Assembly: GCA_004431415.1 (NCBI GenBank)
Contig: QPMI01000631.1
Location: 19,560-83,559, forward strand
Length of the DNA stretch: 64,000 nt
Direction of reading: 5' to 3'
DNA from: Cyanophora paradoxa CCMP329
Taxonomy: Eukaryota > Plantae > Glaucophyta
The notes under the pieces are model-generated. The model searched no databases and was not told the DNA's origin. It was given only the letters and a program-made list of their open reading frames with translations. A program made the position numbers and the translations under genes. Of the stretch, positions 16,194 to 64,000 are shown piece after piece (the first letter of the stretch is position 1; every line of letters begins with the position of its first letter).

Positions 16194-16335
16194 GACATGC
16201 ATGCACACCACCGGGGGGGGGGGGGGGGGGCTTCATCACGAGCGGGGTACTGAACTCTCGTTGTCTGGCGACAGTGCCGCGCGGCACGTATACGTATGCC
16301 GCGACTGTAGCGTGCAGCACGTGAGCGAGATATCG

Positions 16336-45066: not shown

Positions 45067-45171
45067 CGTCCAAGGCCCGCGGCGGTCCAACTCCGGAATT
45101 CCATCCCAGCAGGAGTTCAAGGTCCGAATGCCACCCCGCGGGAGTTGAAGCGCATTAACATAGAATAGGAG

Positions 45172-45245
45172 CGCCCTGGGTGGGGCTCGAACCCACGACC
45201 ATTAGGTTAAAAGCCTAACGCTCGTACCAACTGAGCTACCAGGGC
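45172..45245 (-). tRNA. tRNA-Lys(UUU)
   Basis: GCCCTGGTAGCTCAGTTGGTACGAGCGTTAGGCTTTTAACCTAATGGTCGTGGGTTCGAGCCCCACCCAGGGCG folds into a full cloverleaf with anticodon TTT. Confidence 0.96.
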
Positions 45246-45507
45246 CGTCGGACCTCTGCCCGGTGGGCCCGACCGGTCCCGTTCTCCCCGCTGCACTCCG
45301 CCGACTCCGCGAGCGCTCCCGCCGCCCGGAGAGCGTTCCCGTCGCCCGTTGAGCGCTGGGCACCTGTCTTTCGCGCCGTGCACGCCCCGCTCCGCCCTGG
45401 CGCGGTGTGAGCCCGCGGAACGCTGACGGCCGGCCGCGAGACGGCGCGGCCCGGGGCGAGGCCGCGGAACGCGCTTCCACCGCTCCGGCAATCGTAGCAG
45501 CAGGGCA

Positions 45508-45680
45508 ATGCCGGCCAGCGGCGCGGAGGCGGCGGCCGCAGCGGCGCGGCTCGGCGACCTGCCCGACGAGCTCTTGCAGCGCGTCGCGACGCACCTCGGG
45601 CCCCTCTCGGCGCTCCCGCTGCTCTCCGTGAGCCGCAGGCTTCGCGGCGCCCTCGCCGGCGCGCCGTGCGCCATAGGCAG
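45508..45680 (+). pseudogene. 5' end of an F-box gene with no visible continuation before the viral block
   Basis: MPASGAE...LGDLPDELLQRVATHLGPLSALPLLSVSRRLR matches the F-box consensus LxDLPxELLxxIxxxL...VSRRxR. Confidence 0.6.
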
Positions 45681-46121
45681 ATCTAGATCTAGAGCTCGCG
45701 CTCGCCCAGCGAAAACGCGATGATTGCTAGCTGCAGCCACGGTTACGCACTATATATATGAGGGCCATCAATGGGCCAAACGCGAAAAGGCAACTCCGAG
45801 AGCTCGAGACTCGGAAGTGACGCTTGGATTGCGGAGGTTCTTATAACCGCCGCAACAGCTGTGGGGGTACCCCCTCCGAGGCTGGCGATCGCGGCGATCG
45901 CGACCCGATCGCGACCCTGGTGATCGCGACTTTCTCCCGATCGCGACCCTTTTCGATCGCGATTTCGAGATCGGGGGCATTTCTGCGATCGCGAGAAAGG
46001 AAAAATCGGAAAAGGCCGAAAAGTGCGTTTTTCACGCGTGAAATCGACCGAAAACGAGGGTTCGAATCCCGGGCCCGGATTTGGACTTGGGCAAAATCTC
46101 GGACTGAAATGGGAGAAAAAT

Positions 46122-46186
46122 GGGACCTGGGACTTGGGACTTGGGACTTGGACTTGGGACTTGGGACTTGGGAAGAGTTGGAATCA
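46122..46186 (+). repeat. (GGGACTT)7 array plus GGGAAGAGTTGGAATCA, copy 1
   Basis: Read directly; two units are variant. Confidence 0.9.
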
Positions 46187-46229
46187 GAGTCTGGACTCAA
46201 AACGGGGAAATTTTCGGAGGGGGAGAAAA

Positions 46230-46700
46230 ATGTCAGGCAATCTCTATTACGATTTCCCCTTTGAGTTGCATATGGCATTCGAGAGGCTGCGCGAGTTCTG
46301 GCGTTGGCACCTCACAGGACATGACATTCCCGACATAACACCAGAGCCCAACACACAGGGCGTGCTTGAAGTCATCCGTCAATATCCGCGTCGATTCAAT
46401 GAATGGATCGAGTTCCACGCAACGAACCGTTTCCAGAGTCTCCCCGAGGCCATACGCGAAAATTTCGTGAGGCTGGTGGGACCAGGCTACGACAACCCTA
46501 ACAATCATAGACCACGCCCAGCTGGCGTGACGCGCGAAGCTCGAGAAGACCGTAGACTTTTCCGCAGGGAATTGAGAGAGGATAGACGGAGGCTTTCAAT
46601 GGGGCTCCCGCAGATTGTGAGGGGGTACAGCCCGGATTACGAGACTTACCAAGAATTGTACGGCTTCGAAAATCCCTTTGAGAGGGTACTACCAGGGTGA
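46230..46700 (+). CDS. Hypothetical viral protein (156 aa)
   Basis: Intact intronless ORF MSGNLYYDFPFEL...ERVLPG with AAAAATG start context and upstream AAATTTTCG. Confidence 0.65.
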   Translation: MSGNLYYDFPFELHMAFERLREFWRWHLTGHDIPDITPEPNTQGVLEVIRQYPRRFNEWIEFHATNRFQSLPEAIRENFVRLVGPGYDNPNNHRPRPAGVTREAREDRRLFRRELREDRRRLSMGLPQIVRGYSPDYETYQELYGFENPFERVLPG

Positions 46701-47035
46701 GGGCCAGGGGGGCCCCTGAGGGTGTACCCCCATCCGAGACTCGACCTTCGGCGGACGCACTCGGGCAATTTCCGTCAGGCCGGCTCCTTTTTCTGTCTTC
46801 GGTCCAACGCTAAATTTGGCTTTTTCAGGCCAGTTGGCAACGTTTTCCGTTGCGAACTAGCCCAGGAAAAAATTCGCCCACAAAACCGCGGTCCGCCGCC
46901 ATTTTGCCTCACTCTTGAAACGGGTTCGCCGCCTTCTCTCAGCCCAAGGAAACCCTGCCTCTCCGAATTTTCACAAGTCCGCCCTCACAGTCACCTCACG
47001 TTTTGCCTTTGCTGATTTCTTTTCCCTTTGCGCAG

Positions 47036-48103
47036 ATGTCGATTCCCGCTGAGCTTGCCGAGGACTTCGCCTTTGTCCAAGCAACGTGGGCTAACTCCGG
47101 TGGCACTCAAGGGGCTACCCCTGAGATGGAGCAGCGCGCCGACGCTCTGGGGTACATCTACAATTATGCCATCTTACGCGCCACTGGCCCGAAGTGCAAC
47201 TTCTCCCCAAGTCCGCCTTCACGTCCAAGGCCAAGAAATCCAAGTCCAAGCAACCCAAGCCCGAGCCCCCGTCGACGTGCCCCCCGTCCCCGGCTGGGTC
47301 AAGACCGCCAACGGCTGGGGCGACCCCAAGCTTTTCGCCGAGTCTGCTGCCGAGACGCTCGCCTGGGCCTACCCCCCTCAAGTCTTCACGAATTACCCCC
47401 TCCGTCATCGTCGTCATCTGCCCCTCAGCCCGTCGCCGAGCCCGCCCCCGAGCCCGCCGATGACGCCAAGTCCGAGGCCTCTGACGTCGAGTCTGACATC
47501 AACGACTTCATCGACTTTGACGTGCCGATTCCATACGACTCTGAGTCGTCTTCTGACTCTGAAGGCGACAACGAAAACCCGACTCGCAAGCGCCGCATTA
47601 TCAAGACCAAGTCAATCGTCAAGAAGAAGTTCATGGAGACTACGTCATTCACCGACAACTCCGAGCGCGTCAAGGACCCCGCCAAGGCACACGAGAAGGA
47701 CTTGAAGCTCGGCGCCGGCATTGCCCGTTCTCGCGTGACGTCACACTACAGCGAGCGCCTGACTCAGCACGTCAAGACCATTGAGAAGCGCGTCCTCTGC
47801 AACGAGCTCCGCAAGGAGTTGGAGCGCAAGCGGCGCCACGAGCGCCTTGTCCAGTACCAGATCAACAAGGCGCGGATCGCCGAGCGCAAGCAGAAGGAGG
47901 CGGCCGAGCTCAAGGCGCGCATCGAGGCTCAGCAGCAGCGCGAGGCAGAGGCGGCAGCGGCCTTGGCGGCGCAGCGCGAGCGCGAGCGGCAGGACTTGGT
48001 GCAGGCAGCGCAGTCCCTTCCCCGCATTCCCCTTAAGTCGGCGCCCGAGGGCCTCATTGAGTTGGTTTCCGATGACGATGACTCTGACTTTGAGATGCTG
48101 TAA
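47036..48103 (+). CDS. Hypothetical acidic/coiled-coil protein with NLS-like stretch; probable compensating frameshifts near 47200-47400
   Basis: Long ORF with a D/E/S-rich tract, TRKRRIIK and a C-terminal coiled coil. ATG is directly preceded by a splice-acceptor-like TTTCCCTTTGCGCAG. Confidence 0.7.
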   Translation: MSIPAELAEDFAFVQATWANSGGTQGATPEMEQRADALGYIYNYAILRATGPKCNFSPSPPSRPRPRNPSPSNPSPSPRRRAPRPRLGQDRQRLGRPQAFRRVCCRDARLGLPPSSLHELPPPSSSSSAPQPVAEPAPEPADDAKSEASDVESDINDFIDFDVPIPYDSESSSDSEGDNENPTRKRRIIKTKSIVKKKFMETTSFTDNSERVKDPAKAHEKDLKLGAGIARSRVTSHYSERLTQHVKTIEKRVLCNELRKELERKRRHERLVQYQINKARIAERKQKEAAELKARIEAQQQREAEAAAALAAQRERERQDLVQAAQSLPRIPLKSAPEGLIELVSDDDDSDFEML

Positions 48104-48149
48104 ATAGTATTGCGTCATTCCATTGTACATACTTGTAAAAATTGGCCGA

Positions 48150-48925
48150 CTATTCAGTTACGACTTGGCGCGATCCTGGGACTTGGGACTTGGGACTTGG
48201 GACTTGGGACTTGGGACTTGGGACTTGGGAAGAGTTAGACTCAATTAGTTCGGCCATGAGGGTAGAGCCCACGACCATTCCAGAGGTAGGCATTCCGGCG
48301 ATGTTGTTGTACAATTTGAAAGTGAATTTCGTGAAGAGGAGCCGGGGCCAGACCTGGGTACGGGGATTCGAGGCGCCGTATGAATAATCGGTACCCGAGG
48401 CGCCGCCCGTGGTGGCATTCGTCATCATCTCCTTTGCGGTCATCTTCCAGAGGTTGTACATCTCAAAGGGAACGGCCTGCGTGGTCTTGTGTGTGGCATC
48501 GATGAGGGCGCCATCTAAATGCGTTTTGATGTTCGGATTCGCACCATTCCCGAATTTGCGAGTGAGGGCGGTGTTAGCGGTGAACTTGAGTTCGAGCACG
48601 CGAATGGCGGGCCGATCAGGCACAGAGGGCTCTATCTTTTTCAGGAGGCCCGAGAGCCAGAGCGCCTCCGCCTCATCCGCGCTCACGCCCGAGTCGATGT
48701 CAAAGTACACGTACACGGAGCAGGAGGCGGGATTCTCGAAATCGTTGGAGGTGACGCGCAACATGACGGGATTCTGGACCCTCACGGTGAGCGGGGTGGC
48801 GTAGTTTCCGTCCCACTCCACCTTGTCCGTCCCTGCGTTGGCCACGTTCCAGCGTTGCCGTAGAAATCGGGGACGATCGAGCCGGCAGACACGGTCTTCA
48901 CGATGGTGGCCGAGGTGGTCGGCAT
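48150..48925 (-). CDS. Beta-rich putative virion protein, paralog B (frameshift near the 5' end)
   Basis: VRVQNPVMLRV, SADEAEALWLSGLLKKIEP, IRVLELKF and GSTLMAELIES align with the neighbouring gene. Confidence 0.6.
48178..48243 (+). repeat. (GGGACTT)7 array plus GGGAAGAGTTAGACTCA, copy 2
   Basis: Seven perfect heptamers with nearly the same tail as copy 1. Confidence 0.92.
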
Positions 48926-48948
48926 TTTGCGACCTCAAATGAGAAAGA

Positions 48949-49628
48949 TTATCCGTGAAAGAGGGTGATGTCGCCACCGATGTTCATGACGCGGGCCCCA
49001 GGCACAGAGTCAGCGTCGGTGCCGTACGCGTAGGAAATCGAGCACTCACGCAGCTCCGCGCAGAGGCTGGCGCCCGTGCTGAAGTGGGGCTGGTCGGCGG
49101 CGTAGGAGAGGGGGAAGACCTGGAACCTGAAAAAGGTGAAGGGGAAGCGGGGTAGAGTCGAGCCGCGTGGGTTGCCGCCCGTGTAGAGGGCCCCAGGGTC
49201 GCGGGACTTGGATTGAATTTCGTGAAGAGCACGTCGCCCTTGAGCGTACCCCTCATCTGGTAAGTTCCCGTACCCGGAAGATTCGAAGAACTGGGGTACC
49301 GGTTCACGGTGGGGCCGTACCCCGTCTCCCTGAACTTGACCTCGAGACAGCGCAAGACGTTGGCAGTGGCCGTGGCAGGTGCCACCTTTTTCACGAGTCC
49401 TGATTCGTGCAGCAGCTCGATAACCTCTGCGCTGAGGCTCAGAGGGTCGAAGAAGAGCTGGTAGGAATAAATCTTGGGCGTGGCGTAGGCGTTCTGAACG
49501 ACCTGAATCACGACGGGATTCTGCAGAAAGACGTCGACGTAACTGCCGGAGGGTATGCGTGCGAAATCCTTGGTGTTGTTGCCAACGTCAAGTGAGCCGC
49601 TGAGGGTCTGGTACCAGTTGGAAGTCAT
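48949..49628 (-). CDS. Beta-rich putative virion protein, paralog A (frameshifted)
   Basis: VFLQNPVVIQV, SAEVIELLHESGLVKKVAP, LRCLEVKF, then in a shifted frame FTFFRFQVF...GASLCAELRECS. Confidence 0.6.
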
Positions 49629-49667
49629 TTACCCCGGGGCAGATATTTTTTCGGATCGTAGAGGAAA

Positions 49668-51802
49668 ATGCCCCGCTTCGTATTCGTGAAAAAGCAGGTG
49701 GTGCAGGCTCCGCAGTATGGCGTGGAGCCGATCTCGCTGACTGTGGGCAGGCCCCAGGTGCGATCGGGCTCCGTGCTCAACAACGGGAACAGTACGTACG
49801 GCTTTCAGCTGAACTGGGTCGCGGTCACCAACGCCGTCAAGTACAAGGTGTACAGGGCGACCAGCATCAACGGCCCCTGGGATCTCGTGGCCACGGTGAA
49901 TGCGCCAACCGTCACCTACACGGACTCTCCTTTAGTTTGGGGGCCCAGCGACTCTACCGCGTGGCGGCGGTTCGCGAACAGGGCAGCAGCAGCACGGGCT
50001 CTGATGGCAAAGCCCCGCCCACAACCTACGCACAGTCGCTTCTCTACACCCACGAGGGTGCCATGAGCAATTACATTCTCTTCCAAGGCATAGGCGGCTT
50101 CAGCCCGCAGATCGAAGCCTACACCACGCTCACGACCGCCACGGCCCAGACCTACGGCGATTTTATTGCCGGGGCGGCCCCGCGTCTTCGGGCTTCCCGA
50201 AACCCGCCATAGTCGTCACAATCAACTGGGTGGCCATGGAGGGCGCGGACTCGATTCGAATTTACAGGAACGGTACGCCAATCGGATTTGCGAGCAGTGC
50301 CCTGTCTACCTCGTACATTGACGATAGCACTGCTCTTACGTGGGGCACGGAATACTCTTACCAGGTGGCCGGCATCGTGGGCGGTGTCGAATACGACAAG
50401 TCCGATCCGCTCCTGGTCTGGACTATGCCAAACGCCCCCACGAACGTGACGGCATCAGCACCCAACGACCAGCAGCAGCCTGTCAGCCTCAGCTGGACTG
50501 CGTCCACGGGAGCGACGGGATACAAGATTTACAGAGACGGGGCCTACCTCACAGACTCCGCGACCAACTCCTACAGCGACACGACCACCGTCTGGGGTAC
50601 AGGGTACGAGTACCAGATCTCCGCGACGAACACGGGAGGGGAGGGGCCGAAGAGTATTGCGGCGTACGTCACCACGGACCCGGGGGCGCCCACTGGGCTC
50701 ACTGCAACCCCGCGGCGGGGCAGCACAGCCTGTTGTGCTCGAGTGGTCGGTGCCGGTGACGGGCGTCACCGTCTCCTACAACATCTACAGGGGTGGCGTG
50801 TTCCTTGCCAGCGACACGAGCAGCCCCTTTTCGGACACAACGACCGTTTACGGAACCACTTACACTTACACCATCAAGGGCGTCAACCAGATCGGCGAGG
50901 AAGGCCCTCAGTCCTCGTCTGCCAGTGCAACAACTGCAAACGCTCCTGTTTTGGGTACATTCTCCTACACCGGGGCCGACCAGACTTTCGTAGTACCAAC
51001 GGGGACTGTGGCTGTGCGTGTCATCGTATGGGCGGCCGGGGGTGGAGGCGGAGAACGCGCAGGTACGGGGGTCCGTGGAGGCGCGGGTGCTTGCGTAGTT
51101 GGTACATTGGCTGTGTCCTCGGGGAGACGCTCATCCTTGTTGTTGGATGCGGCGGCCCAAAGGGTGTATCGGGGACTGCCACTGCTACCGTCTACGGAGG
51201 TGGTGGAAGGGGCTGGAGCCATAGCGTCGATCCGGAGTACAAAAACGGCGCCGGTGGTGGTCGTTCTGCAATTCAGCGCGTTGCAGGGACCGACTTGGTT
51301 GTTGCAGGGCCGGAGGTGGGGGTACATGTGATTCGAATGGCGGCGGGGGAGTAGGCGGGGGTTGACCGGTGGTGCGGCTGGGTTGGTTGGAGTAACCGGA
51401 GAGATACCGGCTCAAGGAGGCACCCAAACCGCTGGCGGAGCCGGTGTTGTGGCCTCAGGGGCCAGGCCCAGCAACCCGGGAACTTTGCGCCAAGGTGGAG
51501 AGACTGGGCCTGATTCAAGCGGCTACAGGTTCGGTGGTGGTGGTGGTGGTGGTTACTTCGGTGGAGGCTCTGGGTCCAGCAGGAGCGGAGTGTCAGAGAA
51601 CCCAATAGCAAGAATGTTTGGAGGTGGCGGTGGCTCGAGCTACATAGGAAACTTGACGGATGCTACGGTGTATCCTGGGTCCGGCCAGGTGGCAGGAAAT
51701 AGCGGAGACGCTCACTACGCAGCAGGCATTGGTAGGGGCGGCAACGGTGGCTCGTCTTTCAGCGACGGTGGCAACGGTCGAATTGTGATACTCGCGGTGT
51801 AG
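49668..51802 (+). CDS. Fibronectin type III repeat protein with a C-terminal glycine-rich domain (fibre/spike-like), several frameshifts
   Basis: Four FN3-like units (LNWVAVTNAVKYKVYR, LSWTASTGATGYKIYRDG...YEYQISATNTGGEG), then FSYTGADQTFVVPTG...WAAGGGG and GGGGGGYFGGGSG...GGGGGSSY...GGNGRIVI. Confidence 0.8.
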
Positions 51803-51822
51803 TTATTCCTAGTTGTTCCAGA

Positions 51823-52881
51823 TCAGCTCGCCAGTGCCGCTACCTGGTCTTTGAGAGTTTGAACTTCTTGTGAAAGTTCCTGAATTGCCTTCAACGACAG
51901 GGAAATGAGCCTGTCGTAGTTTACCCCGAGAAATCCATCCGCGTTCTCGAAAACGAGACTCGGGAAGACGCCTTGGACTTCCTGTGCGATGAGACCGTAA
52001 TCCGTTTTCGAACCCCCGAGGATGTGTTCTTCCAGGTGAACGACACGGGATTCAGCTGCAGCAGAAGAGGGAGAATGCCCGACATGCTCGCGACATTTTC
52101 TTTCAGGCGGCTATCGCTCGACGAGTTTGTCAGGTATCCTTGAGCATCCGAATAAACGGCTCGGTTTCCATCGCCCGTGAGCGTCGAGACGATGAGCCGA
52201 CCCGTGATGCCAACGCCGACGGTTCCGCACAGCAGTCGTTCGGTGCCGTTGTTTCTCAAGGATAGACCAGAGCTGACGCTTCCGCTATCAACGATTGAAG
52301 TGTTTGCTATGCTTAGGCCATTAGTAGGGCCTTCGATTGCCGAGGTAAATAGAGTACCTGTAACACCAACGCCAAGAGTCCCACAGAGGAGTCTATCGTT
52401 TTCGTTGTACTTTATAGCTACGCCTGAACCACCGCCATTTATGTACGGTGACGTTCCGGTAATTTGCAGCTTATCGTCCAATGTAACGATGCCCGCCAAG
52501 TTTGAAGCCCCGCTCACCCTAAGCCCCCCACCACGTTTGCTCCGCCTCCTTGCACATACAGAGCCGCATTCCCCTCCCCGTTCACAGTCCCATTAAAGGT
52601 CACCTGATTCGTGGTGTACCCGCTCCCGTCCCAGGCCCCGTTCGTGACGGTGAGCCTCTGCGTCCTCACGCGCCCCGGCACGGCCGACCCGCCCTCCCGC
52701 GTGCGCATCTTGTCGCAGCGCAGCTCGCCGACGCGGACGAGGTCGGCCTCGGAAAAGGGACGGCCGTGGCGTTGTAGGGGGCCTCGGTGGCCTGGTTTCC
52801 GAGGGTGGTCTCCTTAATCGTGTGATCGCCCTTGTGATTCACGCTGGCAGCATAGGTAAATAGAGGGACAGCGACCGACAT
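51823..52881 (-). CDS. Fibre protein with C-terminal peptidase S74 intramolecular chaperone domain (frameshifted)
   Basis: SSSDSRLKENV...LLQLNPVSFTWK, then YGLIAQEVQGVFPSLV...GVNYDRLISLSLKAIQEL. Internal repeated (ND/TE)RLLCGT(L/V)GVG(V/I)TG shaft units. Confidence 0.85.
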
Positions 52882-52905
52882 TTTTGGATTGCATCAGAAA
52901 ATCGA

Positions 52906-55900
52906 TTACATAAGCAGCTTGCCGATCGCGGTCCAATGAATAAAAAGCTGGACAATTTGGGTGGGCGTGACCGTCATTCTGGGTTGGAATCTCACTTTAA
53001 CTGTAAAGCCAGTGTGACTCACCGCCGTGACGTTGGCCCCGTAGAAATCGACATCCGTGCTGCCGCCGGGATTGATGTCGAACGAGGGGGTTACGTTAAT
53101 AACCGGCGTTGGGTTTGCTTGGGTCCCCAGTCCGCCTCCAGTGTCGTACGCCTGTCCGAATGTAATGTTGAACGTCACCGTGTATGTTGAATTGATGTTA
53201 AACTCCGTGTACGCAGCGTAGGAGTGGAAGGACGTGCCGTGCGTTATGTACGCATCCATGTTCACGTTTCTGTGCCCGTGGCTGGTGAGCGAGTACTCTG
53301 TGTGACTGTGCGTAGAGGGTGGGAAGGAAGTGGGTCGGTCGATGACATTATCCCAGTACACATTGTGACTGTGTGTAGAGGGGGGAAGGTAAGTGGCTTG
53401 CCCGTTACGTTGTCCCAATCCACGGAGATGTTCGTCAAGTCCGGGGCCGTCCAGTCGCTGATCTGAGAGATGGTGTGCTGGTGGTCTGCGTGGGGATACG
53501 TACTCGGCTTCCCCGTGATGCTATCCCACGCCCACGTTGTTGGTATCACGGGTATCGTCGGCCTCCCGCTGAGATCTGCATACGCCCCGTGTGTGCCACC
53601 GTCGCCAGCTGCGGCACGGCAACGCCCACGGTGCTCACGGCCTGGCTCGCCCCCGGCGCCATGTGCCACTCGTAGTTCTGCGATGCAAACACGGGCTGGC
53701 CTGGCTCGGGCGCCCAGTACTCGATGCCTTTGGCGATCTTCTTGGTGTATGGTGCTGCAGGCCTGTCAACCAATTTATCGACGTAGGCCTTGGGTACCAG
53801 CCAGTTTGCCTTGGGGCTCTGCGAATTGATCCCGTTGTCTATGAAGGCCCGTAATTCCTGAAGGCCTCGGCCTCCCACCAATCCTGCATGCGGAAGGTCC
53901 CGGGAATCTCGAGGCGCGAGTTGGCGTCCGCCAGGCGGGCCACCTGCGCCCCTCCGTTCGACGAGACGCCCGAGTGACGGATGGCCGAGCCGAATTCGCG
54001 CCTTAGGGCTTCGATGTGATTGATCCTGTTGAGGCCCTCCTGGTAGACGGCAATTAAGACGCGCTTCCGCCCCTTGGTCTCCTCCTTTATCATCTGCTTC
54101 AGGTCGCGCATAAGTCGACTCAGGGCGAGCGAAGTCGACCGAAGCCCTCCTGCATTTTAACGGTGAGCTGGGAGAGGAAGAGCACGGTCGCGCGATCGAT
54201 TTCGAGCAGGGTCTTCTGGTCCTTGGGGGTACGGTAATCGTTGATGCTGTTGTCGAGCGCGCGAATGAAGGCCTGCAGCTCCTTCGGCTCCTTGATTTCG
54301 TTTAACCGCAGCTCCTGGGCCAAGAGCGAGGCCATTTCGCGCGCCTCCGAGGGGTCGTACACACCCAAAAATCCGGAGCCCAGCTCGCCTCCAGCCGATT
54401 AATTCGGTTGCGCAGCTGGCTCGCCTCGTCGCCCCACGTCTCGACGCCCCAGTCGTAGATCTGTTGCGAGAGCTCCGCGATGAACTGTATGGTGTCGGTC
54501 GCCCAGTCGACGGGGTACTTGAAAAAGTTCTTCACGATTTCTTCCGCGCTGCGCCCGTTGATGATATCCACGATCACCTGCGCGATGGCGCCCGCGAGGA
54601 TGGACAGGCCAAGTCCGCCCACCGTGCCGATCCTCATTTTCGTGAGGGCGCTCAGGGCGGACGACATGCCCGTCTGAAGGCCAAAAGAGCCGACCGTCAT
54701 GATCATCTGATCGCGGAACGTATCGAAGAACTCGGCCTCCCTATCTTGCCCTGCGAGAGCGCCTGGTAGGCCGAGAGCAGGCCGCCGGCCGTCGCCAGCC
54801 CAAGGCCCGCCGCCGCCGCGCCCGCCCGCCGCATGGCCCGCGAGCCCGTACCCCCGAGCCCGGCGCCCACCAAGTCGATGCCCGCCCCCTGAAATAAATC
54901 GGCTGCCCCGAAAGACATGCCGTCGTTGTTCGCCGTACCCGCCGCCGAGAAGAGCGTCTCGGCGCTGAGGGCCTCCTTGGCCACCCCGGGCCGCCTTGCC
55001 CTCGGCGCCCCAGGTACGCGTCGCGCTGCTCTTTGGTGGTGAATCGCTCGAGGTCGAAATCGGCGAGGGCGTCGGCGGTGGCGCGGTTCCAGTCGCCGTA
55101 GGGCATGAGGGCGTTGCGCAAAATAACGTCCGAGTCGCCCATCACGCGCCTGTCGAGCGTCTGAAACACGCCCTCGGAGGGCAGGCGGGCGGTGCCCGGG
55201 CGCATCTCCTCCACGGAAACGTCGTCCCTCTCCGCGAGTGTGATGTCGTCTGGGCTGGCCAAGCCGACGCCCGCGCCCTCATCGGCGTACGCCCTTCCCT
55301 TCGTTTTAATATTTGATTGGCCTCCCGTTTCAATGCTTGGTACTCTGTCTCTACCTTGGTCTTTCTTGCCTCTTCCTCTGCCGCCTTGCGCTCTGCGATC
55401 TTCCGCCTCTGCTCTTCTATCTCGGCGTTGCGTCTCGCCGCGTTCTCCTTCGCCTGCTGCTTCCGCTCTTCAATCACCCTGTTTGCGTACTCCTTGTCCG
55501 CTTGGGCCTTTCTGTAGCGCTCCTCGATCTGACTCTTGCCTCGTCTCCTCTCTTCCTTAGATCGCCCATGAATGCCGTCGTATCTATGTGAATCTTGTAT
55601 TTGGCGGGTGGGTGCTCACGTTTGAAGGCCTCCAGATCGCGCACCATGGCATCGTACTGCGCGAGCCCCTCCGCTGGAATGATGGCTCTTCGCATTTCCC
55701 AAAATTTGCTCAGCTTGCCCACGTAATCGACCATGGAGAGGTACGCGCTCTGTGCGCCCGCGCTCACCGTTTTCGGATTGGCTCGCAGCTCTGCCACAAA
55801 CTTTCCCTTTTGCATCCGGTACAGTGACCATTCGAGGGCTCCCGCCATAGGCTCACTTCCGTCCGCAGTTCGCGGTGCATCTCCTCCACGTCGCCGTATG

Positions 55901-58086
55901 CTATCCAGATGGCATCGCTGATGGGCCTCTGAACAGCCTGACGCTCAAAGTTTTTCCACTTCTCATCGGCCATCTTTCTCCTCAGTTCTTCGGCGTCTTT
56001 CTGACCCCTTCCCGTCAGCTGATCCATAACGTAGCTAAAGTCGCGCATGTTCTCTTCCATGGCGCGGACCCTGTCCCCCGATGCATTTCCTTCTTTCAGT
56101 TTTTTGAGCTCCGAGCGGTAAAAATCCATCTGCGCCCCCTGAACGTCTCCAGTCGTCGCTTACGCTCCGCTACCTTCGCTCCTCCAGCCGTGCAAATTCC
56201 TCGTCTGATGCAGTTTGCATTGCCTTCAGTCGTTCCTCTTCTGTCTTGGCAGCTGCCTCCTCGTCCGCCTGCGCCGCTGCTCTAACGCGTCGAAGAGGGC
56301 CCTCTGATCCTCGAGCGTGAGGCCAATGAGCTCTTCCACCTGGTCGCTCCTACCCAGCCGCGCGAAGGCAGCCTCTCGGCGGCCGGCCTCGGATCGGGCC
56401 TCGGCGTCGTCTGCGTCTCGGCCGTCCCATGGGCGAGCGAGCCTCTGCCGTGGCCGCGTACTTGAGCAGCCTCTGTGCCAGCTCGTCCGCGTTGGCCTTG
56501 AATTTTTCGACTGCTCGTCCGCGCGCTCGCGGCCTCCTTTAAATTTTTGATTTCCTCCCGGAGCCTGTTCGCCTCCTGCACCGCCCCGTTTGCAGCTCTC
56601 CTGCCTTTCTCCTCGTTTCCTCTTCCTCTTCCAGCAGCTGCCTTCTCGTCTCTGCCTCCTTTTCCAATTTCTTCTTCCTATCCTCGATCTCTTTCCTCTG
56701 CGCCTCAAGCAGCTCGGTGCCTGCGGTCAGCGCTTCAATTTCCTGCAGCTTTTTCGCCTTGGCGGCTTCCCTTTGCTCGTTTATCCTCTTCAGCTCCTCC
56801 TCGGCGTCGAGTATCATTTTCGTGCGCTCTTCCGCGACCTGGCGCTCTGCCGACCTTAGCGCGGTGAGGGCGCTCTCTTCCTGCCTTTGCGCGTCTGTCA
56901 TCAGCTTGTTCGCTTCCGCCTTCTTCTCCGCGACCTCTGTCATTTCCTTGTCTTTCAGCTCGCTCCATTGCTTCTTTTCGTTCTCGAGTTTGTAGTACTC
57001 GCGCTGCGCGTCCTCGGTATCGAATTTAATGGGGGTCTCGCGTTCAGCTCGTCGATTTGCCTCACGAACCCCTTCCGATCCTTGTAGTATTTGATGCCGC
57101 CTACGATGAGGGCGCCCCCGAAGATGGCCGTTGAAGTGGCGAGGCCTGCTACCTTATCCATGCCCTCCCCGCCTGAGCCGCCGCCACCCGAGCCGCTGCT
57201 GCCCCCGCCCCCGCCCACTGGCGTGCCGCTGGAGCCCCTCCGCCCCCGTGCCTGTACCCCCACCCCCGGTGCCTGTACCCCACCCCGGTGCCTGTACCCC
57301 CACCTCCCGTGCTTCCACCACCCGTACCCCCACCCGGAATCGCACCCGGCACCTTGGGCCCGCCGATGATGTCGTCGTACAGGTGGCGGTGCGCCCAGTC
57401 CGTGATGTCGGCCTTCACGTGCGGGTGCTTGACGAGGGCGTACCTCTCGTCGTGGAAGTGGTCCTTCAGCGCCCAGTTCTGCGTCTTCGCCAGTCCGAGC
57501 GATCGGGGAGCACGTCGGGCGCCGTTGGGATGCGGCCCCCGCCGTCGTCTCCGGCGTCTCGCCCGTCCTGTCGGCGCTCAGGGCGCGGATGTTGACCTTG
57601 AAGTGGTCGAACCACGCGAAAAACTCCTCCCTGTCGCGCCTGTACTGCTCGGGCTCCATGCTCGGCAGCGCCTGGCGCTCCAGTAGATGTGGCGCAGGGG
57701 CCCGCGATGCGCTCGAGTGCGTTGTACCCGGGCCTCACGTCTCCCTCTGCCCCCTTTAGAGTCAGTTTCACGAGGTTCAGGGTGGCATCCTTTGCGGTGA
57801 CCGAGTTTGCGATTTTCACGTCGGCCGCCCTCTTGATAATGTTCCAGTCCACGCCCGTCTCGGTCGTCACGCCCCAGAGCCCCTTGATAATTGCGGTGAG
57901 GTCACCGTAATCGTCCAAGGTACCGACGGACGTCAGGAAATCGCTGTAGGTCGCGCCCTTGCGCAGCCTTATCTCATCCGCGTAAATTCCCCTCACGCTC
58001 AGGCTCCCGTCTATCGCGAAGGCACCGTTCAGCACCTCGTCCGGATTCGGGATGGCCATGCGCCAGGGGTCGTCGAGCATCGACAT
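52906..58086 (-). CDS. Very large (about 1,700 aa if joined) coiled-coil plus phage-tail-fibre-like protein, broken into many frames
   Basis: Abutting same-strand coding fragments: Gly linker, long E/K/R coiled coil, hydrophobic Gly/Ala helices, WDSITGKPSTYP/WDNVTGKPLTFPPSTHSH repeats and a C-terminal TGFTV...IHWTAIG domain. It could instead be 2-3 genes. Confidence 0.6.
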
Positions 58087-58111
58087 TTTATCCGCGAGAG
58101 AGAAAAATTAA

Positions 58112-58582
58112 CTAATGCTCCGCGTCCCACGTCCACTTCAGCTTGCCGCTCACCTCGCCCGTTGTCCAGCGGCCCACGGGCACCTGCAGAAAACGTCGGC
58201 GTAGGGTAATCGGCCTGATAGTGATCTGCTCGTCACGCAGCCAGCGGTAGGCCTCGGAGGCGTCGCGAATCTTTGGCTCCCAGTATTCCCCACCCGTGCC
58301 GTTCGGCAGCGAGTACCCCTCCCTTGCTACCCGTACCCTGTAAAAGTGATCGCCCATTAGCGTGTCTACCCCCTGTACTCGAATTCTACGATTAAGGCCA
58401 AGTCCTGCCATGCGCTCTCACCGAGACGGATGTGACTGAGGCTGTGCAGCAGCCCGTATTTAATTGGACCAGAGGCGGTTACAAGATCGACTCTGTAAGT
58501 AAGGGCGAGGGGTAGCCAGGCACGCCCGTAAAGGTACGCGTCTTGACGCCCGAGCCTTTCGCGGGAATATGATCAGGCGCAT
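58112..58582 (-). CDS. Hypothetical viral protein (frameshifted)
   Basis: ORF 58112-58411 plus upstream coding sequence from TTAAATG at 58582, preceded by the ATTTTCG motif. Confidence 0.45.
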
Positions 58583-58615
58583 TTAAGGGGGCCTGCGAAA
58601 ATCTAGTCGGCCTAC

Positions 58616-59057
58616 TTAGCGTAGGCCCAGAGGCCGAAGTTCTTGACGATGAAGGCGTTGTTCTTCTTGGTGGCGCCCGTGATGTCGGTGAAGCGCACGC
58701 GCAGCTCCTGGAATTTGTCGTACGCGACGTAATTCGGGCGCACGGCCATGGGCACCTCGAACCAGTAAAGGATGGTGTTTTCCAGGCGTCGTGGCCCACG
58801 TCGGAATCACGACCTTGTTGATGCACGCGTTCACGTTCGAGATGGTCGTGACGTTCAAATCGGGCACGTCCATCAGCAGCACGTTTACGGTTTTCGCGGC
58901 GGTGGGGTCCGGAATCGCGGTCGTGTCCAGCTCCAGGTAGACTCCCTTGATCTGCAGCGTGTCGATGTCGGAGGGGATCTGGTTCAGCCTGAGGCGCCAG
59001 AAGCCTCGGAATCCTGCGTCTCTCGTTCGACTGGACGTAGAGGTTAACGCAGGACAT
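58616..59057 (-). CDS. Putative minor capsid/penton (single jelly-roll) protein, frameshifted
   Basis: Joined frames give IDTLQIKGVYLE...VLLMDVPDLNVTTISN...KVVIP...ILYWFEVP...FQELRVRFTDITG, resembling the penton pattern of Polinton-like and NCLDV viruses. Confidence 0.5.
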
Positions 59058-59060
59058 TAT

Positions 59061-59270
59061 TTAGGCCTTAGGAGGGGCTGAGAAATTAAGCCCGCTTCGG
59101 TCCATGTTCAGGAGGTGGGCCCACGAAGTAGTAGCCCGCGAATTGTGCGAGAGGATCCGCAGCAGGTAGTAGCGCGCGGGCGACATGTACGCAACGGCGC
59201 CGAGGGTCAGGAGGCTGCCCAGGTAGCGCGAATCGCTGAGGATGTTGTCGAGGCTCGGCAGGGACATCAT
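59061..59270 (-). CDS. Small hydrophobic viral protein
   Basis: 69-aa ORF with YLGSLLTLGAVAYM and the shared upstream motif. Confidence 0.45.
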   Translation of the reverse strand: MMSLPSLDNILSDSRYLGSLLTLGAVAYMSPARYYLLRILSHNSRATTSWAHLLNMDRSGLNFSAPPKA

Positions 59271-59298
59271 TCTCGGGTTTAAGGCCCCTTTCAGAAAT

Positions 59299-59653
59299 TT
59301 ACTTGGGCATGAAGAAATTCCTGACGCGCTCTCCCTCCTCGTGCAGCGCCCACTGCAGCCGGTCGATGACGGCGGCCATCACGGGCGGGCTCGCGGCGGG
59401 GTTTTTCGCGTACGCCCTGGCGTCCTCTGCATCTGGGGTGGTACTGCTCGACCCGCTTGGCGTAGCTCGCGATGGCGCGGCGGGTGCACCGATCCAGGTC
59501 AGCCGCCATTTCCGCCGGTGCCTTCGGCTGCTGCTGCTTCTTTCGCGCGTAAGTCCTAAGAAGCCAAGGGTAGGCCGTGGTGCTGCTGCTGGTGCTGGTG
59601 TTGGTGGACGATTGATCCTCGGCGCTGGGGGCTGGTGTCGCGGGAGTCTCCAT
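59299..59653 (-). CDS. Hypothetical viral protein (frameshifted)
   Basis: METPATPAP...AADLDRCTRRAIASY, then AVIDRLQWALHEEGERVRNFFMPK-stop; shared upstream motif. Confidence 0.45.
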
Positions 59654-59664
59654 TTCCCATGTTC

Positions 59665-59930
59665 TCTAGAAAAAAACGCGTACCGGTCTGCGTCATCTGA
59701 ATGTCCACGTGGTGCGGGCCTATGTTCTGGACGCTCTCGCGCCTCTGCTCGGGCGGGGGCTCGGGCTCGGGCTGCCCGCGGCGCACGACCCTAAGGGCCG
59801 CCGCCTTCAGGGCGCCCAGCACGGTGTTGGGGCGCACTCGCTCCGTGCCGCCCAGCAGCTCGGAAATCAGGAAGAGCGCGCCGCATACGACGGTGATGAC
59901 GTCCGAGTGGGTGCATTCCCCCTGGAACAT
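59665..59930 (-). CDS. Small viral membrane protein; end uncertain
   Basis: VITVVCGALFLISELLG...PNTVLGAL resembles small LxxSExL...N membrane proteins of viruses. Confidence 0.5.
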
Positions 59931-59939
59931 CTTGCGGGC

Positions 59940-61892
59940 GCGTCAGATTAATTAACCGCGGCCCTGCCCTTCCGCGCCCCTTGCCCTTTCCGCGCCCGCG
60001 GCCCAGCCCTCCGATCTCGGCGGCCTGCGGCGCGAAGCGCGGATCGTCCGAGGGGGCGGACTCCGTCTGGAAGATGGAGAAGAGGTAGCCGTCCGTGTTG
60101 TTGTCGGTGTTATTCTGTTGCGCGCGTGCGACCACTGCTTCAGCAGGTCGCGCCGCTGCGTCTCGGGCAGCGTCTTCGTGAGGTACTCCTGCAGCCGCCC
60201 GCCGTAATTTTCCTCCGGAATCAGCTCGGCGAGGATGGTGGGCGGGTCTTTTCCCATGCCGATTCTCCCCGGTTCAGGTCGTCGATGAGCTCCGCGTTCT
60301 GCAGGATTCTCTCCGCGTCCTGCCCGCCTCTTGCTGCAGCTGCTCCACCAGCCTCCTTCCGGCCTCCGCGAATTTGCCGGCCAGAATTTCGCCCAGCCTC
60401 TCGTAGACGGTTGTCGTACCCGGCTCCTTTTCCTTGAGTACCACGACCCAATCGTACTTTGCCCAGAGCACCTGCAGGTTCGATATGTGGTCGATCGTGA
60501 CGAGCACGTGGGCGTGCAAGCAGCCGTCGGTCGGCCCCACTTCCACGCCCCCCTGCACGCGAATTCCGATGATGGCGTTTGCAAAGGTATCGTCCTTGTA
60601 CTTGCCGTCCTCTTCCTTTAAATTAAATCGAATGAACTTGTAGAATTCGGCGTCCGAGAGCACCTGGGCCAGGCTGCCGCGGAAGGCCTCCACCTCGAAT
60701 TCTCTCGCGGCGCCCAGCCTCTTGTGTGTGTTGAAGAGCACCCAGTACCGCGACTGGCGCGCCTGTCGAATATCGTAGCGCGTGCTGCCGTCGCGTTCTT
60801 TTTGTTGAGGATGAAAACCGAGCGGCCCGTCTCGTTGATTTCGGTGATGACCTTTTCGAGCGCCTCCAGCCCGTTGGCCCTCGCGGCCTGCAGCCCCGTT
60901 TTCGTCTTTTCTATGTTCTCCTCACTCCGTCGATTTCCTTAGGATCTCGTCGATCCTGCTCATGTCGGGCGCGGCGATATCCTGCTTCCTAATTTTCTCC
61001 TGGCCCGAACCCGGCGCGATGGTCGACTGGCCGAAGGCGGCGGCCATATCCTTGGCGGATTTCGAGGCCTTCGTCTTCGGCCGCCCAGCACCGTCTGCGC
61101 CATCTGATTCTGCGCCTGCGCCGACACGGCCGTGGTGTCGCCCCTCTTGCGCCGCTGCAGGCCCAAATTCGCGAGGAGGCCGCGATCGTCCAGGAATCGG
61201 TAGCACTGCATGCAGAGCCACGAGTTCTTCGGGTACACCGGGGCAGCTGCGCGGGCTTCTTGTCTTTGATCGGGGGTACTTGTTTTTGGCCTTTGCGCCT
61301 TCGCCCACTCGTTTGCCTTGTCGACCTTTTTCGCGTAATCGGCGTACGCGCCTCCTTCTTCGCGGTCGCCTCCGCGACGGCCTCCGCGGTGCCCTTTTTG
61401 CGGGTATGCTCGGGATTTCGTACATGAGGCGCAGGCAGCGGTAGCAGACGGGCGGCGATTTTTGGGCGCTCTGGAAGGCGCGCGGGATGGCCCGCAGGCG
61501 CTCCTCGGGCAGCGCGTCGTAGAACTGCTTGCTGTGGATGCTCCAGAACGTGGCATCTTTGTAGTAGGCGTCGAGCGCAGTGGTTTCCGGTACCTGCACG
61601 CGCGTGATCGGATCCTCGAGAATTTTAACTACATCCGGGATGCCCTTCTGCATTTCGATGATCTGCCGTTTTCGCCTCGACCAGCACGGCCCGCTTTGGA
61701 ATTTCGACTATGGGCATATCGAGCTCGTTGTATTTCTTTCCTTCATCTTTCCCCCGCTCCCTTTGGCTTCGGCTCATCCTCGGCCTCTCTCTTCACTCTC
61801 CTCTGATTCCGATTCTGGCTTCTCCTCTTCTCGTACGCGACCCTCGGACTCGCTCTCCGGCTTCTTCTTACGGCCTCGGCGCTTCGGAGCAT
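59940..61892 (-). CDS. Long HUH-superfamily endonuclease with N-terminal basic/acidic region and two CxxC pairs (frameshifted)
   Basis: Motif I YWVLFNTHK, motif II EVGPTDGCLHAHVLVTIDH, motif III LQEYLTK. Upstream frames carry CYRC and CMQC and an N-terminal PKRRGRKKK. Confidence 0.75.
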
Positions 61893-61913
61893 ATTATTGG
61901 CTACAAGAAAAAA

Positions 61914-62744
61914 TTACACGAGCTTTACAGCACCCGTCTCGAGGGCCTCTACCGTCTTCGTAATGTACAGCTGCAGCAGATCCTAAGGTTGTCTGCGGTA
62001 GCAATTTACGTCTACGTGCATCTGCCTGGCGGTTCTCGCTTCCTGTAGCCCGTCTCCTTGCCCGTCCACTGCATGCCGAGGGCGTCCTTTCTCCGTATCG
62101 GGCCACCGCCGTCTTCTGGTACTCCTCTCCAACCAGTCGTCCTTGTAAAAATTCGGCAGGCCGCCCTGCCCTCCGTCGCATGAAATCGATGAGGAAATCC
62201 GACGCCCGCTTGCCGTCGAATTGCAGCCGCGAGTAGTGCACCAGCGTGAGCAGGATGTGCGCGTGAGCGCCCCGACCGCGGCCGTACTCGATGCCGATGT
62301 TCGCGTTGCCCCTCTCCACGTGCGTGTCGTACATGTCCGATTTAAAATCGAGACCCTTGGGTTCGCCTTGTCCGCGTATACCCCATCTTTATGCACTTTG
62401 CAGCTGCCTGTCGTCGTAGAAAAGGGCCTCCAGCCCCTGTGAAAGGCGTCTTGAACCTTGGAGCCTTCTCCCTGCTCCGGGGCTTGTAGTTGGTCTGGAT
62501 GGTGATCATAAATTCGACTCGCGCTGCGGCCTCTGCTCGACTACCCCGGACGGCGTCGTGAAGGTCTTGGTGGCGCGCGTCCAGCACTTCTGGAACCACG
62601 TCTTGCGGGTGCCAGCACCTTGTCTTGATGTTGCCCACCACGATGTGAGTCTCTACCCGGAGCGGCCGGAGGCGTCATGCGGAGGTGCGGGTTCGGGCGC
62701 GGGTTGCCTGTTTGCTGCTACGCCCTCGCGATGAGGTTGAGCAT
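61914..62744 (-). CDS. Short HUH-superfamily endonuclease (frameshifted)
   Basis: Motif I FMITIQTNYK, motif II IEYGRGRGAHAHILLTLVHYSRLQFD, motif III LQLYITK. Confidence 0.78.
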
Positions 62745-62813
62745 GTCAGACCAAGGCTAGAAAATTTTCCGAGGCTAGGGTGAGCTCCACGTGGGCCCGG
62801 GTACGCCTGCGCC

Positions 62814-62890
62814 TCACCTGAGCGATCACCTGAGCCTCACATGAATCACCTGAGCAACGCCTTCTGTCACATCTGCGGGCTCACCTCGCT
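62814..62890. promoter_or_regulatory. Iteron-like TCACCTGAGC repeats between divergent HUH and VLTF3 genes
   Basis: Three exact TCACCTGAGC copies plus the variants TCACATGAA, TCACATCTGC and TCACCTCGC. Confidence 0.5.
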
Positions 62891-62968
62891 GGGACCCACT
62901 CGATTGCGTGAAGCCAGTTTGCTACTTCTGCAAGGGCGTAGCTCAGCTGCAGTACGAGGACTCGAGGA

Positions 62969-63785
62969 ATGGCAGACTCTGGCGAAATCGATCTCCTCCT
63001 CCGAACTTTGAGCAGATCCAGCGCTACGGCGCCATCCTTCACGACGAGGGGACCAGACTTCGACACTCCGGCACCGTACCCGCCGCCCGCGCCCATCACC
63101 AGTTCCTACCTTGGAGCGGAGAGCGCCCCCGCAACGCAACCGTCGCACCCAAGGCCCAAGGCGAAGCGCTTCCCCTGCGGAAATTGCGGCTCTACCCGCC
63201 TCGTTGGTGTTCACCTGGATGGGGATCTGGTTTGCCAAGGCTGCGGTCTGGTCCTGGATCTTTATTATCCGGACCATCAACCCCTGGCTGTCAGCGAAAT
63301 CCACAGCAACTACCTGCGCAAGTACCACGTATCTGAGCGACTTAAGCAGCACTGCCTGGAGGATTCTCCTGTACCCGAGGACGTGCTGGCAGCTATTGCG
63401 AGGCGCATGGCAGGGAAGGAGTGGAGCAAAGACAATATCCGCCAAGTTCTCCGGGCTCTGAAGCAGCAGAAGTACATCGAGCGCTGGGCGCAGATCAAGT
63501 GGCGCATCACGGGCGAGCGCCCGCCTCCGATGAGCGCGGAGGATATGGACCGGGTGCAGGAGATGTTCGCCCTGGTGGAGGTCCCCTTCAGCATTTTCAA
63601 GTCGCAGGGTAGGGAATATGCTCAACTACAACTACGTTTTCAGGCAGATTTTCGTGCTGCTAGATTTGCCCCAGCACCTCCCCTACTTTCCCTTGCTCAA
63701 GAGCAGGCAGAAACTCTCGGAGTTAGATTCGATTTGGAACAGGATCTGCGAGTACAACGACTGGCATTTCTTTCCTACTCTTTAG
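62969..63785 (+). CDS. VLTF3: Viral late transcription factor 3-like (VLTF3/poxvirus A2 family), one frameshift near 63613
   Basis: Zn ribbon CGNC...LVCQGCG, YLRKYHVSERLKQ, IRQVLRALKQQKYIE, then NMLNYNYVFRQIFVLL...YFPLLKSRQKLSELDSIWNRIC...WHFFPTL. Confidence 0.92.
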
Positions 63786-64000
63786 CTACTCTTTAGTGAT
63801 CGCGGCGGCCTTCCGCTCGAGCGCCTGCTTGATTCCGAAGCTCGCGCTGGTAGCCTTGATTAGCATGTTCGTCTGCCCGTGTGTAAATCAGGATGAACAT
63901 AATTCCGCCGGTGGGCGTCGTCGAAAAAACTTGAGGGTGAGCACGTATTTCGAGAAGCAGGCCGAGGAGAGGCCGTTGACGGCGACTTGCGCGGCGAGCT
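63786..64000 (-). CDS. 3' end of a further viral gene, truncated by the window edge
   Basis: Coding-like frames ending FGIKQALERKAAAITKE-stop, abutting the VLTF3 stop. Confidence 0.4.

Follow-up and report, generated by a model that had tools for sequence, protein, structure and literature searches.

A probable integrated relative of the mriyaviruses, with paired HUH endonucleases and a VLTF3 gene, in Cyanophora paradoxa

The right-hand part of the window (the whole 64,000-nucleotide stretch analysed) is occupied by a gene-dense viral block that begins at about 45.9 kb and continues past the window end, with about 18 kb visible. The preliminary description had reported at least 18 kb of compact viral genes, and this holds: a Markov host/virus score turns from host-like to virus-like at about 45800-46000. 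Host DNA lies on the left, and this is the one junction visible in the window. The features are as follows.

45171-45245, minus strand: host tRNA-Lys(TTT) (ARAGORN), 0.5-0.8 kb left of the element
45553-45648, plus strand: host F-box-like fragment (PF12937, E 5.7e-4, below cut-off), stopping just short of the junction
45700-46000, no strand: left host-virus junction zone, where the Markov score changes sign and CTAG and poly-G/C runs disappear; exact end approximate
46121-46173, no strand: tandem array of a 7-bp G-rich unit, 7.7 copies (TRF), near the left end
46230-46700, plus strand: 156-aa ORF with no assigned family (no Pfam or PHROG match)
47036-48103, plus strand: low-complexity, charged ORF of about 350 aa (no Pfam or PHROG match)
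48177-48230, no strand: second array of the same 7-bp G-rich unit, 7.7 copies (TRF)
48235-48925, minus strand: protein of about 230 aa, paralogue 1, a weak minor-capsid (penton) candidate from an Atlas lead to V18-19
48949-49628, minus strand: paralogue 2, about 226 aa, a penton candidate by kinship to its neighbour
49668-51802, plus strand: FN3-repeat and glycine-rich protein, likely a fibre or spike (PF00041, E 5.7e-7; phrog_1696, E 1e-13; phrog_11583, E 5.7e-9)
51823-52881, minus strand: phage-style fibre with a C-terminal S74 intramolecular chaperone (PF13884, E 5.8e-6, two frames)
52906-58086, minus strand: long coding stretch, on our frame model possibly a single ORF of about 1700 aa
58112-58411, minus strand: open reading frame of about 99 aa, no assigned family
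58612-59057, minus strand: gene of about 150 aa, penton-like by eye only, no family match
59061-59930, minus strand: three small ORFs, of which two contain hydrophobic segments, no gamadvirus family match
59952-61892, minus strand: long HUH protein of about 640 aa, with a Cys-motif N-terminal region and, at the C-terminus, an HUH domain like that of the gamadvirus short HUH; start placed from an upstream motif
62012-62744, minus strand: short HUH endonuclease, about 240 aa long with an uncertain 3' end; its closest counterpart is the HUH domain of gamadvirus HUH_long
62813-62855, no strand: direct repeat of 11 nt, three copies, in the gap that separates VLTF3 from the divergent short HUH gene; candidates for origin or promoter elements
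62969-63785, plus strand: VLTF3 late transcription factor with an N-terminal zinc ribbon (PF04947)
63786-64000, minus strand: 3' part of a small gene that runs off the window, weakly homologous to the gamadvirus gene that faces VLTF3

The two 7-bp arrays flank both plus-strand ORFs. A literature search on titles gave no support for a telomere origin of the arrays, and the element's left end showed nothing unusual as a hairpin (z -1.63).

The VLTF3 gene named in the preliminary description is present. PF04947 matches two overlapping frames (62942-63793, E 3.1e-6; 63534-63782, E 2.2e-11), and a TFIIB-type zinc ribbon is matched in the same gene; full-length copies (P0018, P0022) are 276 aa long. 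In our tree the element's VLTF3 groups with those of small viruses, and 24 rows of giant-virus type split off at 100/100; a second tree divides 43 from 109 rows with SH 100. Within the small-virus VLTF3s the Cyanophora sequences make up a clade on a long stem, which lies outside the gamadviruses in the best tree. There the element adjoins 12 short, unlabelled VLTF3s found on contigs of at most 47 kb (94/82), which may belong to Yaraviridae. The nearest relatives outside Cyanophora come from contigs no longer than 40-47 kb and from gamadvirus-like genomes with MCP, A32, YqaJ and RuvC genes. Grouping with a five-row giant-virus subclade, the one nesting tested, was rejected (p-AU 0.001). The VLTF3 tree proposed in the preliminary description put the gene on the small-virus side; placing it as sister to the giant-virus rows (p-AU 0.47) or to the gamadviruses (0.18) was nevertheless not rejected. 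Hence the tree does not firmly place VLTF3 in a family.

Two HUH endonucleases had also been claimed, and both are borne out. A profile built on the short HUH of gamadviruses matches 60277-60921 (E 1e-13) and 61897-62388 (E 4e-5), and a profile-profile comparison with gamadvirus HUH gives 96% / E 1.8e-9. Motifs I and II of both genes align with gamadvirus HUH; the motif III tyrosine aligns in the short HUH and, for the long HUH, in copy P0002. The element thus appears to carry an HUH endonuclease with motifs I-III, as is expected of Mriyaviricetes. It also has the duplication into short and HUH_long forms expected of Gamadviridae, with the paralogues corresponding crosswise to the gamadvirus pair. 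Neither gene has a Pfam or PHROG match, sequence searches of PDB and Pfam recognise neither HUH set, and Atlas returns nothing for HUH. An AlphaFold model of an HUH fragment reached pLDDT 42, too low for use, and a BFVD search with it found nothing at E <= 0.001. No stable hairpin was found upstream of the short HUH gene (z -0.95).

Beyond the preliminary description, the gene cut by the window end appears to be a weak homologue of F2, the gamadvirus family that faces VLTF3. F2 was the best of 223 profiles (P 3e-6), scoring 13.1 bits where the highest of 2000 shuffles reached 8.2; the match is weak and reads through two breaks. F2 is convergent with VLTF3 in all 72 loci that have F2, and the ATPase comes next in 64 of the 72. 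Because the ATPase follows F2 in gamadviruses, we predict a packaging ATPase just past the window end. A reading by eye of the 63786-64000 gene as the C-terminus of an MCP was set aside: a homologue search was empty, MCP profiles did not match, and F2 did.

The three fibre genes and the penton-like gene claimed earlier fared unevenly. The S74 and FN3 fibres stand, the former also matching many tail-fibre PHROGs (down to E 1.6e-17). The third, at 52906-58086, combines a coiled coil, hydrophobic segments, short units that by eye resemble tail repeats, and an end resembling an H-lectin, but its H_lectin match (E 0.0065) is below the Pfam cut-off. The gene at 58612-59057 resembles a penton gene by eye only. 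It is covered by contigs from two probable RNA runs, neither recorded as RNA, and parts that those runs leave uncovered do not count as silent. At 48235-48925 a language model gives a weak lead to PF21507 (V18-19; score 0.92, 159 of 256 features, 19% of members), but the predicted fold is unusable at pLDDT 32, and a BFVD search found nothing at E <= 0.001. This protein shares 40% identity over 68 aa with its neighbour at 48949-49628 (E 1e-10). All three penton candidates are unproven.

The preliminary description had proposed a search for a double-jelly-roll MCP, an A32 ATPase, VLTF2, a helicase and an integrase. None of these was detected within the window, nor were RuvC, PDDEXK or Mriya_1/48/50/51, by gamadvirus profiles that are perhaps too distant. 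Mriyaviricetes are characterised by genomes of 35-45 kb that lack DNA and RNA polymerases; in the visible block no polymerase family matched among 34 frames scanned against Pfam and PHROG. When six of the 17 window proteins were compared profile to profile against 65 gamadvirus alignments, no probability exceeded 5.2%. IMG/VR held no close relative with gene context, although nine gamadvirus loci were recovered; JGI metagenomes gave 19 loci, the best segments at 32-40% identity, and no close relative. Phages gave no match to the element.

An alternative is that the block derives from a virus that has decayed or lost its capsid, or is a fragment of a far larger insertion from a giant virus; it would have spread through duplication or in the manner of an HUH transposon. 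The missing MCP, the many frameshifts in the window copy and the unrejected sister position to giant-virus VLTF3 would fit. However, the frameshifts are absent from short-read contigs, and among the matches listed five of eight short-read pieces differ by gaps only, with zero substitutions; the frameshifts are very probably long-read errors. In a second variant, 26 of the 28 tested differences are synonymous (12/12 in the 5' part of 52906-58086, 5/5 in 58112-58411 and 9/11 in 58612-59057), and this holds even in structural-type genes. The HUH pair, moreover, is gamadvirus-like, and NCLDV-type MCP genes abound in the C. paradoxa genome. We consider a decayed or giant-virus origin very unlikely.

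Matching gene models on at least 25 contigs are labelled Cyanophora paradoxa, in line with the glaucophyte host proposed earlier. VLTF3 accounts for 21 models on 19 named contigs and HUH for seven on seven; on one other contig, VLTF3 and HUH models lie three gene numbers apart. These contigs differ and carry different alleles, and 14 DNA-type runs contain an equal share of words (0.54-0.56). Both observations speak against a free or episomal virus of the culture joined to host DNA by an assembly chimera. That reading could draw on the high depth of short-read contigs across the block, a depth never taken here as copy number, and on a junction seen in the assembly only; we regard it as remoter still than decay. 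Run X20 (organism B; four pieces, depth 2.6-3.6) was excluded from the evidence.

We conclude that the block is probably the left-hand 18 kb of a provirus, the integrated form of a small mriyavirus-related DNA virus (probably 30-45 kb) which forms a recent, selection-maintained copy family in Cyanophora paradoxa. It apparently represents a deep, undescribed branch of mriyavirus-like viruses; the earlier suggestion of a probably undescribed lineage is supported. Formal membership of Mriyaviricetes is not claimed, because the MCP and ATPase fall outside the window.

The chief competitor is a 20-30 kb NCLDV-like Polinton-like virus (PLV) similar to Zora, VC218, VC134 and Zephyr, equipped with an RVE or tyrosine integrase of its own, which acquired mriyavirus VLTF3 and HUH genes. 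According to the accessible text of 10.64898/2026.06.19.733378, 28-50% of the genomes in those groups carry HUH, or about 30% carry VLTF3, and about 60% encode integrases. A family of tens of copies points to an integrase, the fibre set is PLV-typical, and one C. paradoxa element whose lectin fibre is laid out in the same way has been classed as a PLV (PMC12220804). Yet VLTF3 together with HUH, or a duplicated HUH, is not reported for those groups in that accessible text (10.64898/2026.06.19.733378). Four gamadvirus-type genes are clustered here, with one adjacency conserved, and 18 kb are spent before any MCP, ATPase or helicase. We therefore hold a PLV unlikely, if less so than decay.

For the mriyavirus-related provirus, we envisage that host nuclear RNA polymerase II would transcribe the genome, with VLTF3 as the virus-supplied late factor. 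An HUH enzyme would nick the viral origin and host DNA polymerase would drive rolling-circle replication. The A32 ATPase predicted to the right of the window would then pack progeny into a double-jelly-roll capsid, whose S74, FN3 and lectin-tipped fibres may bind the algal surface. For integration, an integrase encoded in the unseen half has an about even chance of being responsible; the second HUH paralogue acting through strand transfer is a less likely route, and passive capture by host repair is the least likely.

A bolder proposal, which we think doubtful, is a third family-level lineage of Mriyaviricetes: an actively integrating, inducible glaucophyte provirus family with no integrase, in which one ancient HUH duplicate replicates and the other inserts. 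If so, the HUH duplication would predate the gamadviruses, and the first glaucophyte virus could be obtained from a model strain; we know of no isolated glaucophyte virus. Among living viruses, mriyaviruses have been put forward as the nearest relatives of the giant-virus ancestor, and the element would widen the host range of mriyavirus-like viruses to glaucophytes. A multicopy, apparently intact, possibly transcribed family in a cultured alga would allow mriyavirus rolling-circle replication, the second HUH and integrase-less integration to be tested through induction, a search for circles and nicking assays.

Some of this has precedent, and the earlier claim of a novel system was overstated (PMC10120064; PMC12220804; 10.1101/2022.07.28.501842): endogenous capsid genes in C. 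paradoxa, a PTR-PTR-H-lectin fibre and an integrated gamadvirus elsewhere are already known. In PMC10120064, 366 C. paradoxa MCP hits in two clusters (272 and 94) are catalogued as Polinton-like viruses. That filing is by capsid only, VLTF3 is absent from the main text, and the best HHpred matches of six listed MCPs are NCLDV capsids. PMC12220804 reports a C. paradoxa 'PLV' fibre with a PTR-PTR-H_lectin layout, the lectin fibre layout of the window block. The endogenous viruses of both reports share the element's host, but no tie between their MCPs and this contig was found.

Among named groups, the element differs from giant endogenous viral elements (Megaviricetes) in that its VLTF3 was not nested within a giant-virus family: the 24 rows of giant-virus type group at 100/100 apart from it. 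Zora (VC102), VC218, VC134 and Zephyr are likewise small and mriyavirus-related, with HUH or VLTF3 in some members, and usually carry an RVE or YR integrase and Mriya48 in 20-30 kb (accessible text of 10.64898/2026.06.19.733378). No tandem HUH pair is described there, and the element has no match to the gamadvirus Mriya_48 profile. Yaraviridae (Yaravirus brasiliensis and relatives) share VLTF3, HUH and a small genome, some with duplicated Sputnik-like pentons, but their HUH, unlike the element's, is not described as duplicated.

The mriyavirus affinity in the preliminary description is supported, but the Gamadviridae of class Mriyaviricetes (PMC11253617; Phaglo-G and the Pleurochrysis endemic viruses), rather than Yaravirus, are the closer model, in the HUH pair and the gene facing VLTF3. 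HUH duplication is described in gamadviruses only. They have VLTF3, about 33-41% identical to the element's, and likewise no polymerase seen. Their tandem HUH order is the same, short and then long with a C-terminal HUH domain (PMC11253617 Table S1), and the same small gene faces the VLTF3 3' end. Phaglo-G is integrated in Phaeocystis, with short tandem repeats on its flanks (10.1101/2022.07.28.501842). Differences are considerable. Only four of about 17 element genes match, gene order is otherwise different, and neither the ten family-specific PEV proteins nor the conserved gamadvirus gene order was found in the visible block. The gamadvirus long HUH measures 1600-1860 aa against about 640 aa, and upstream of VLTF3, where gamadviruses have a minor capsid/Mriya_51/Mriya_50/PEV_20/Mriya_48 block, the element has its HUH pair. 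The element further stands apart in its three fibre-type genes and in its tens of copies in a glaucophyte rather than in haptophytes.

The right-hand part of the window had been described as at least 18 kb of viral sequence, and composition bears this out. This block has a GC content of about 0.58-0.62 and, unlike the rest of the window, is nearly devoid of CTAG and of poly-G/C runs. A host/virus Markov score switches sign between about 45800 and 46000, and in a codon model coding frames span most of the block, broken by many frameshifts. To its left we recorded the following features.

8947-9534: adenylate/guanylate cyclase domain, piece of a host gene
13162-16151: perfect 93-nt inverted repeats, 2.8 kb apart, around a 198-nt tandem repeat in three copies
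16120-16980: BTB/POZ domain, piece of a host gene
29225-29758: lactate/malate dehydrogenase domain, piece of a host gene
41723-45042: long inverted-repeat element, terminal arms of ~0.65 kb (86-98%) flanking a 1.9-kb core, with a tRNA-Lys gene directly after
Left of the block: the tRNA-Lys gene and an F-box-like fragment

The element at 41723-45042 had no Pfam match in the three frames scanned and is transposon-like. At 45171-46000, the virus end, the tRNA gene and this element all lie within about 1 kb; from this one junction, a preference of the virus elements for tRNA neighbourhoods is possible. At 46121-48230, two 7-bp arrays of identical unit flank two plus-strand ORFs, a pair that looks like a separable terminal cassette. 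Directly 5' of the ATG of the second ORF are a pyrimidine tract and CAG, resembling a splice acceptor.

Pfam, run on 34 frames, matched VLTF3 in two, confirming that gene, S74 chaperone in two and FN3 in one, with H-lectin below threshold; a PHROGs scan of the block frames added tail-fibre matches. Three fibre genes had been proposed. Their domains establish the predicted S74 and FN3 products as proteins of the fibre type; the third candidate, the long stretch 52906-58086, has terminal short repeats followed by the weak H-lectin match. These repeats, which lack a Pfam match, we take to resemble phage tail repeats. A layout of phage-tail repeats with H-lectin is reported once, in a C. paradoxa PLV, in the section of PMC12220804 consulted. 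The proposed penton-like gene could not be substantiated: the three candidates, at 48235, 48949 and 58612, are unproven. An A/T motif lies 14-15 nt 5' of the ATG in five genes and 23-24 nt in two more (28 distinct sites); because it was chosen by eye, we regard it as a candidate promoter only.

Four genes end the block.

59952-61892, minus strand: long HUH gene
62012-62744, minus strand: short HUH gene
62969-63785, plus strand: VLTF3
63786-64000, minus strand: gene cut by the window end, adjoining VLTF3

Aligned VLTF3 relatives led to 80 viral loci. Loci L001-L073 share gene content and gene order with Pleurochrysis endemic virus 2 (PEV2), including MCP, A32, YqaJ and RuvC (Pfam, L010 and L001), and their order agrees with PMC11253617 Table S1. 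Among 187 family profiles from the loci, F26 was the only one to match the window once VLTF3 and the frames antisense to it are set aside. This family corresponds to the short HUH of gamadvirus loci, where HUH_long is next in tandem, an arrangement described in the excerpt of the mriyavirus paper. It matched the long HUH gene at E 1e-13 and the short one at E 4e-5, and motif I, both motif II histidines and the motif III tyrosine are visible in the alignment. Hence, the two HUH endonucleases noted at the outset are upheld. Against separate profiles, the long gene scored 53 bits with gamadvirus short HUH and 34 with the HUH_long domain, and the short gene 22 and 32, respectively. In the HUH tree the short gene, read through breaks, groups with six HUH_long domains (95/87). 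The HUH duplication may thus predate the gamadviruses, and the opposite paralogue would carry the N-terminal extension; given long branches and a short gene read through breaks, this crosswise pairing is suggestive.

Where does the VLTF3 belong? A library search gave 3253 relatives, 150 of them listed. A FastTree of 152 rows placed the Cyanophora clade inside a 43-row short-VLTF3 group, separate from 109 long VLTF3s. An IQ-TREE of a chosen 56-row subset (3 Cyanophora-clade, 12 unlabelled short, 17 gamadvirus-like and 24 giant-virus-type rows) retained this split at 100/100 and placed the Cyanophora clade, on a stem of 0.79, outside the gamadvirus-like rows (99/94) and adjoining the unlabelled short group (94/82). 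In both trees the VLTF3 sits on the small-virus side, in line with the preliminary description, but AU tests rejected neither union with the gamadviruses (0.18; core 0.17) nor a place sister to the giant-virus rows (0.47). Joining the clade with one giant-virus subclade was rejected (AU 0.001). We conclude that the Cyanophora VLTF3 represents a deep-branching lineage whose family assignment is uncertain. VLTF3s of P0030, P0031, P0034, P0062, P0063 and L001 branch outside the core gamadviruses and may represent further mriyavirus lineages without placement. L001 (IMG/VR, 11.8 kb) carries gamadvirus genes in a different order.

The last 210 bases, read through two breaks, matched family F2 best among 223 profiles (P 3e-6; 13.1 bits, against 8.2 for the best of 2000 shuffles); in a single frame P was 0.005. 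F2 is a conserved small hydrophobic gene (~114 aa, e.g. L010:10740-11081) of 72 of the 80 loci, on the opposite strand and overlapping the VLTF3 3' end, which it faces in 72/72; the ATPase is next in 64/72. From match and synteny we predict an ATPase directly beyond the window. In PMC11253617 Table S1, PEV2 VLTF3 is numbered 24 and the ATPase 25, which leaves no number for F2; the gene seems to have been missed there.

The HUH search found seven proteins, gene models on seven different contigs of one EukProt proteome; P0001, labelled Cyanophora paradoxa, is 100% identical to the window across 79% of the query. Six of eight VLTF3 clusters are from the same proteome and two from ENA and Logan contigs (76% and 59% identity), so the lineage has further members. 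Including cluster members, 21 VLTF3 models lie on 19 named contigs (at least 25 contigs with those of HUH); two encode the full-length 276-aa protein, and on another contig a VLTF3 model and an HUH model differ by three in gene number. VLTF3 relatives outside the proteome include P0010 (ENA, 3.6-kb contig) and P0014 and P0027 (Logan, contigs to 8.2 kb).

We compared 4 of 24 listed sequencing runs over 57400-64000. A DNA-type run covered 30/30 bins, and five of its eight listed pieces aligned without any substitution, with 5-15 gaps apiece; one of these, 1112 nt spanning the long HUH domain, had 6. Single letters absent from the window made up 11 of the 12 indels listed (108 more). Long-read errors leave such a pattern, and passages of PMC10120064 also describe them as a problem for such elements; the element is probably intact. 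The remaining three pieces carry 11-21 substitutions and represent a variant. Of 40 substitutions listed (151 more), 28 were tested, 12 being omitted for an uncertain frame or non-coding site; 26 of the 28 were synonymous, so purifying selection acted while the two virus variants diverged, and three reading frames gain independent confirmation. Contigs from two presumed RNA runs (two studies) lie over 58470-59149 and from 62837 beyond the window end, overrunning it by 1344 and 516 nt; both begin at 62837, where DNA continues. They are a weak hint that the block is transcribed.

We conclude that the element is real, multicopy, mriyavirus-like and deep-branching; the MCP and ATPase, which decide class membership, are not in the window. 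Our literature search found no paper on a glaucophyte mriyavirus, and Cyanophora is not mentioned in the mBio mriyavirus text or two supplements, the 2026 framework text or the portion of PMC5294986 consulted; supplement rows of PMC10120064 give 366 MCP hits in C. paradoxa.

Under the mriyavirus model, itself a prediction, host polymerase would transcribe the element in the nucleus and an HUH enzyme would start rolling-circle replication. Synteny and the NCLDV-type MCPs known in the C. paradoxa genome point to packaging and a capsid. One junction and many contigs suggest integration into host DNA; the excerpt of 10.64898/2026.06.19.733378 reports integrases as absent in mriyaviruses and common in related PLV groups. 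As far as seen, the element would work like the gamadviruses, but it differs from them in gene content and hence is no gamadvirus.
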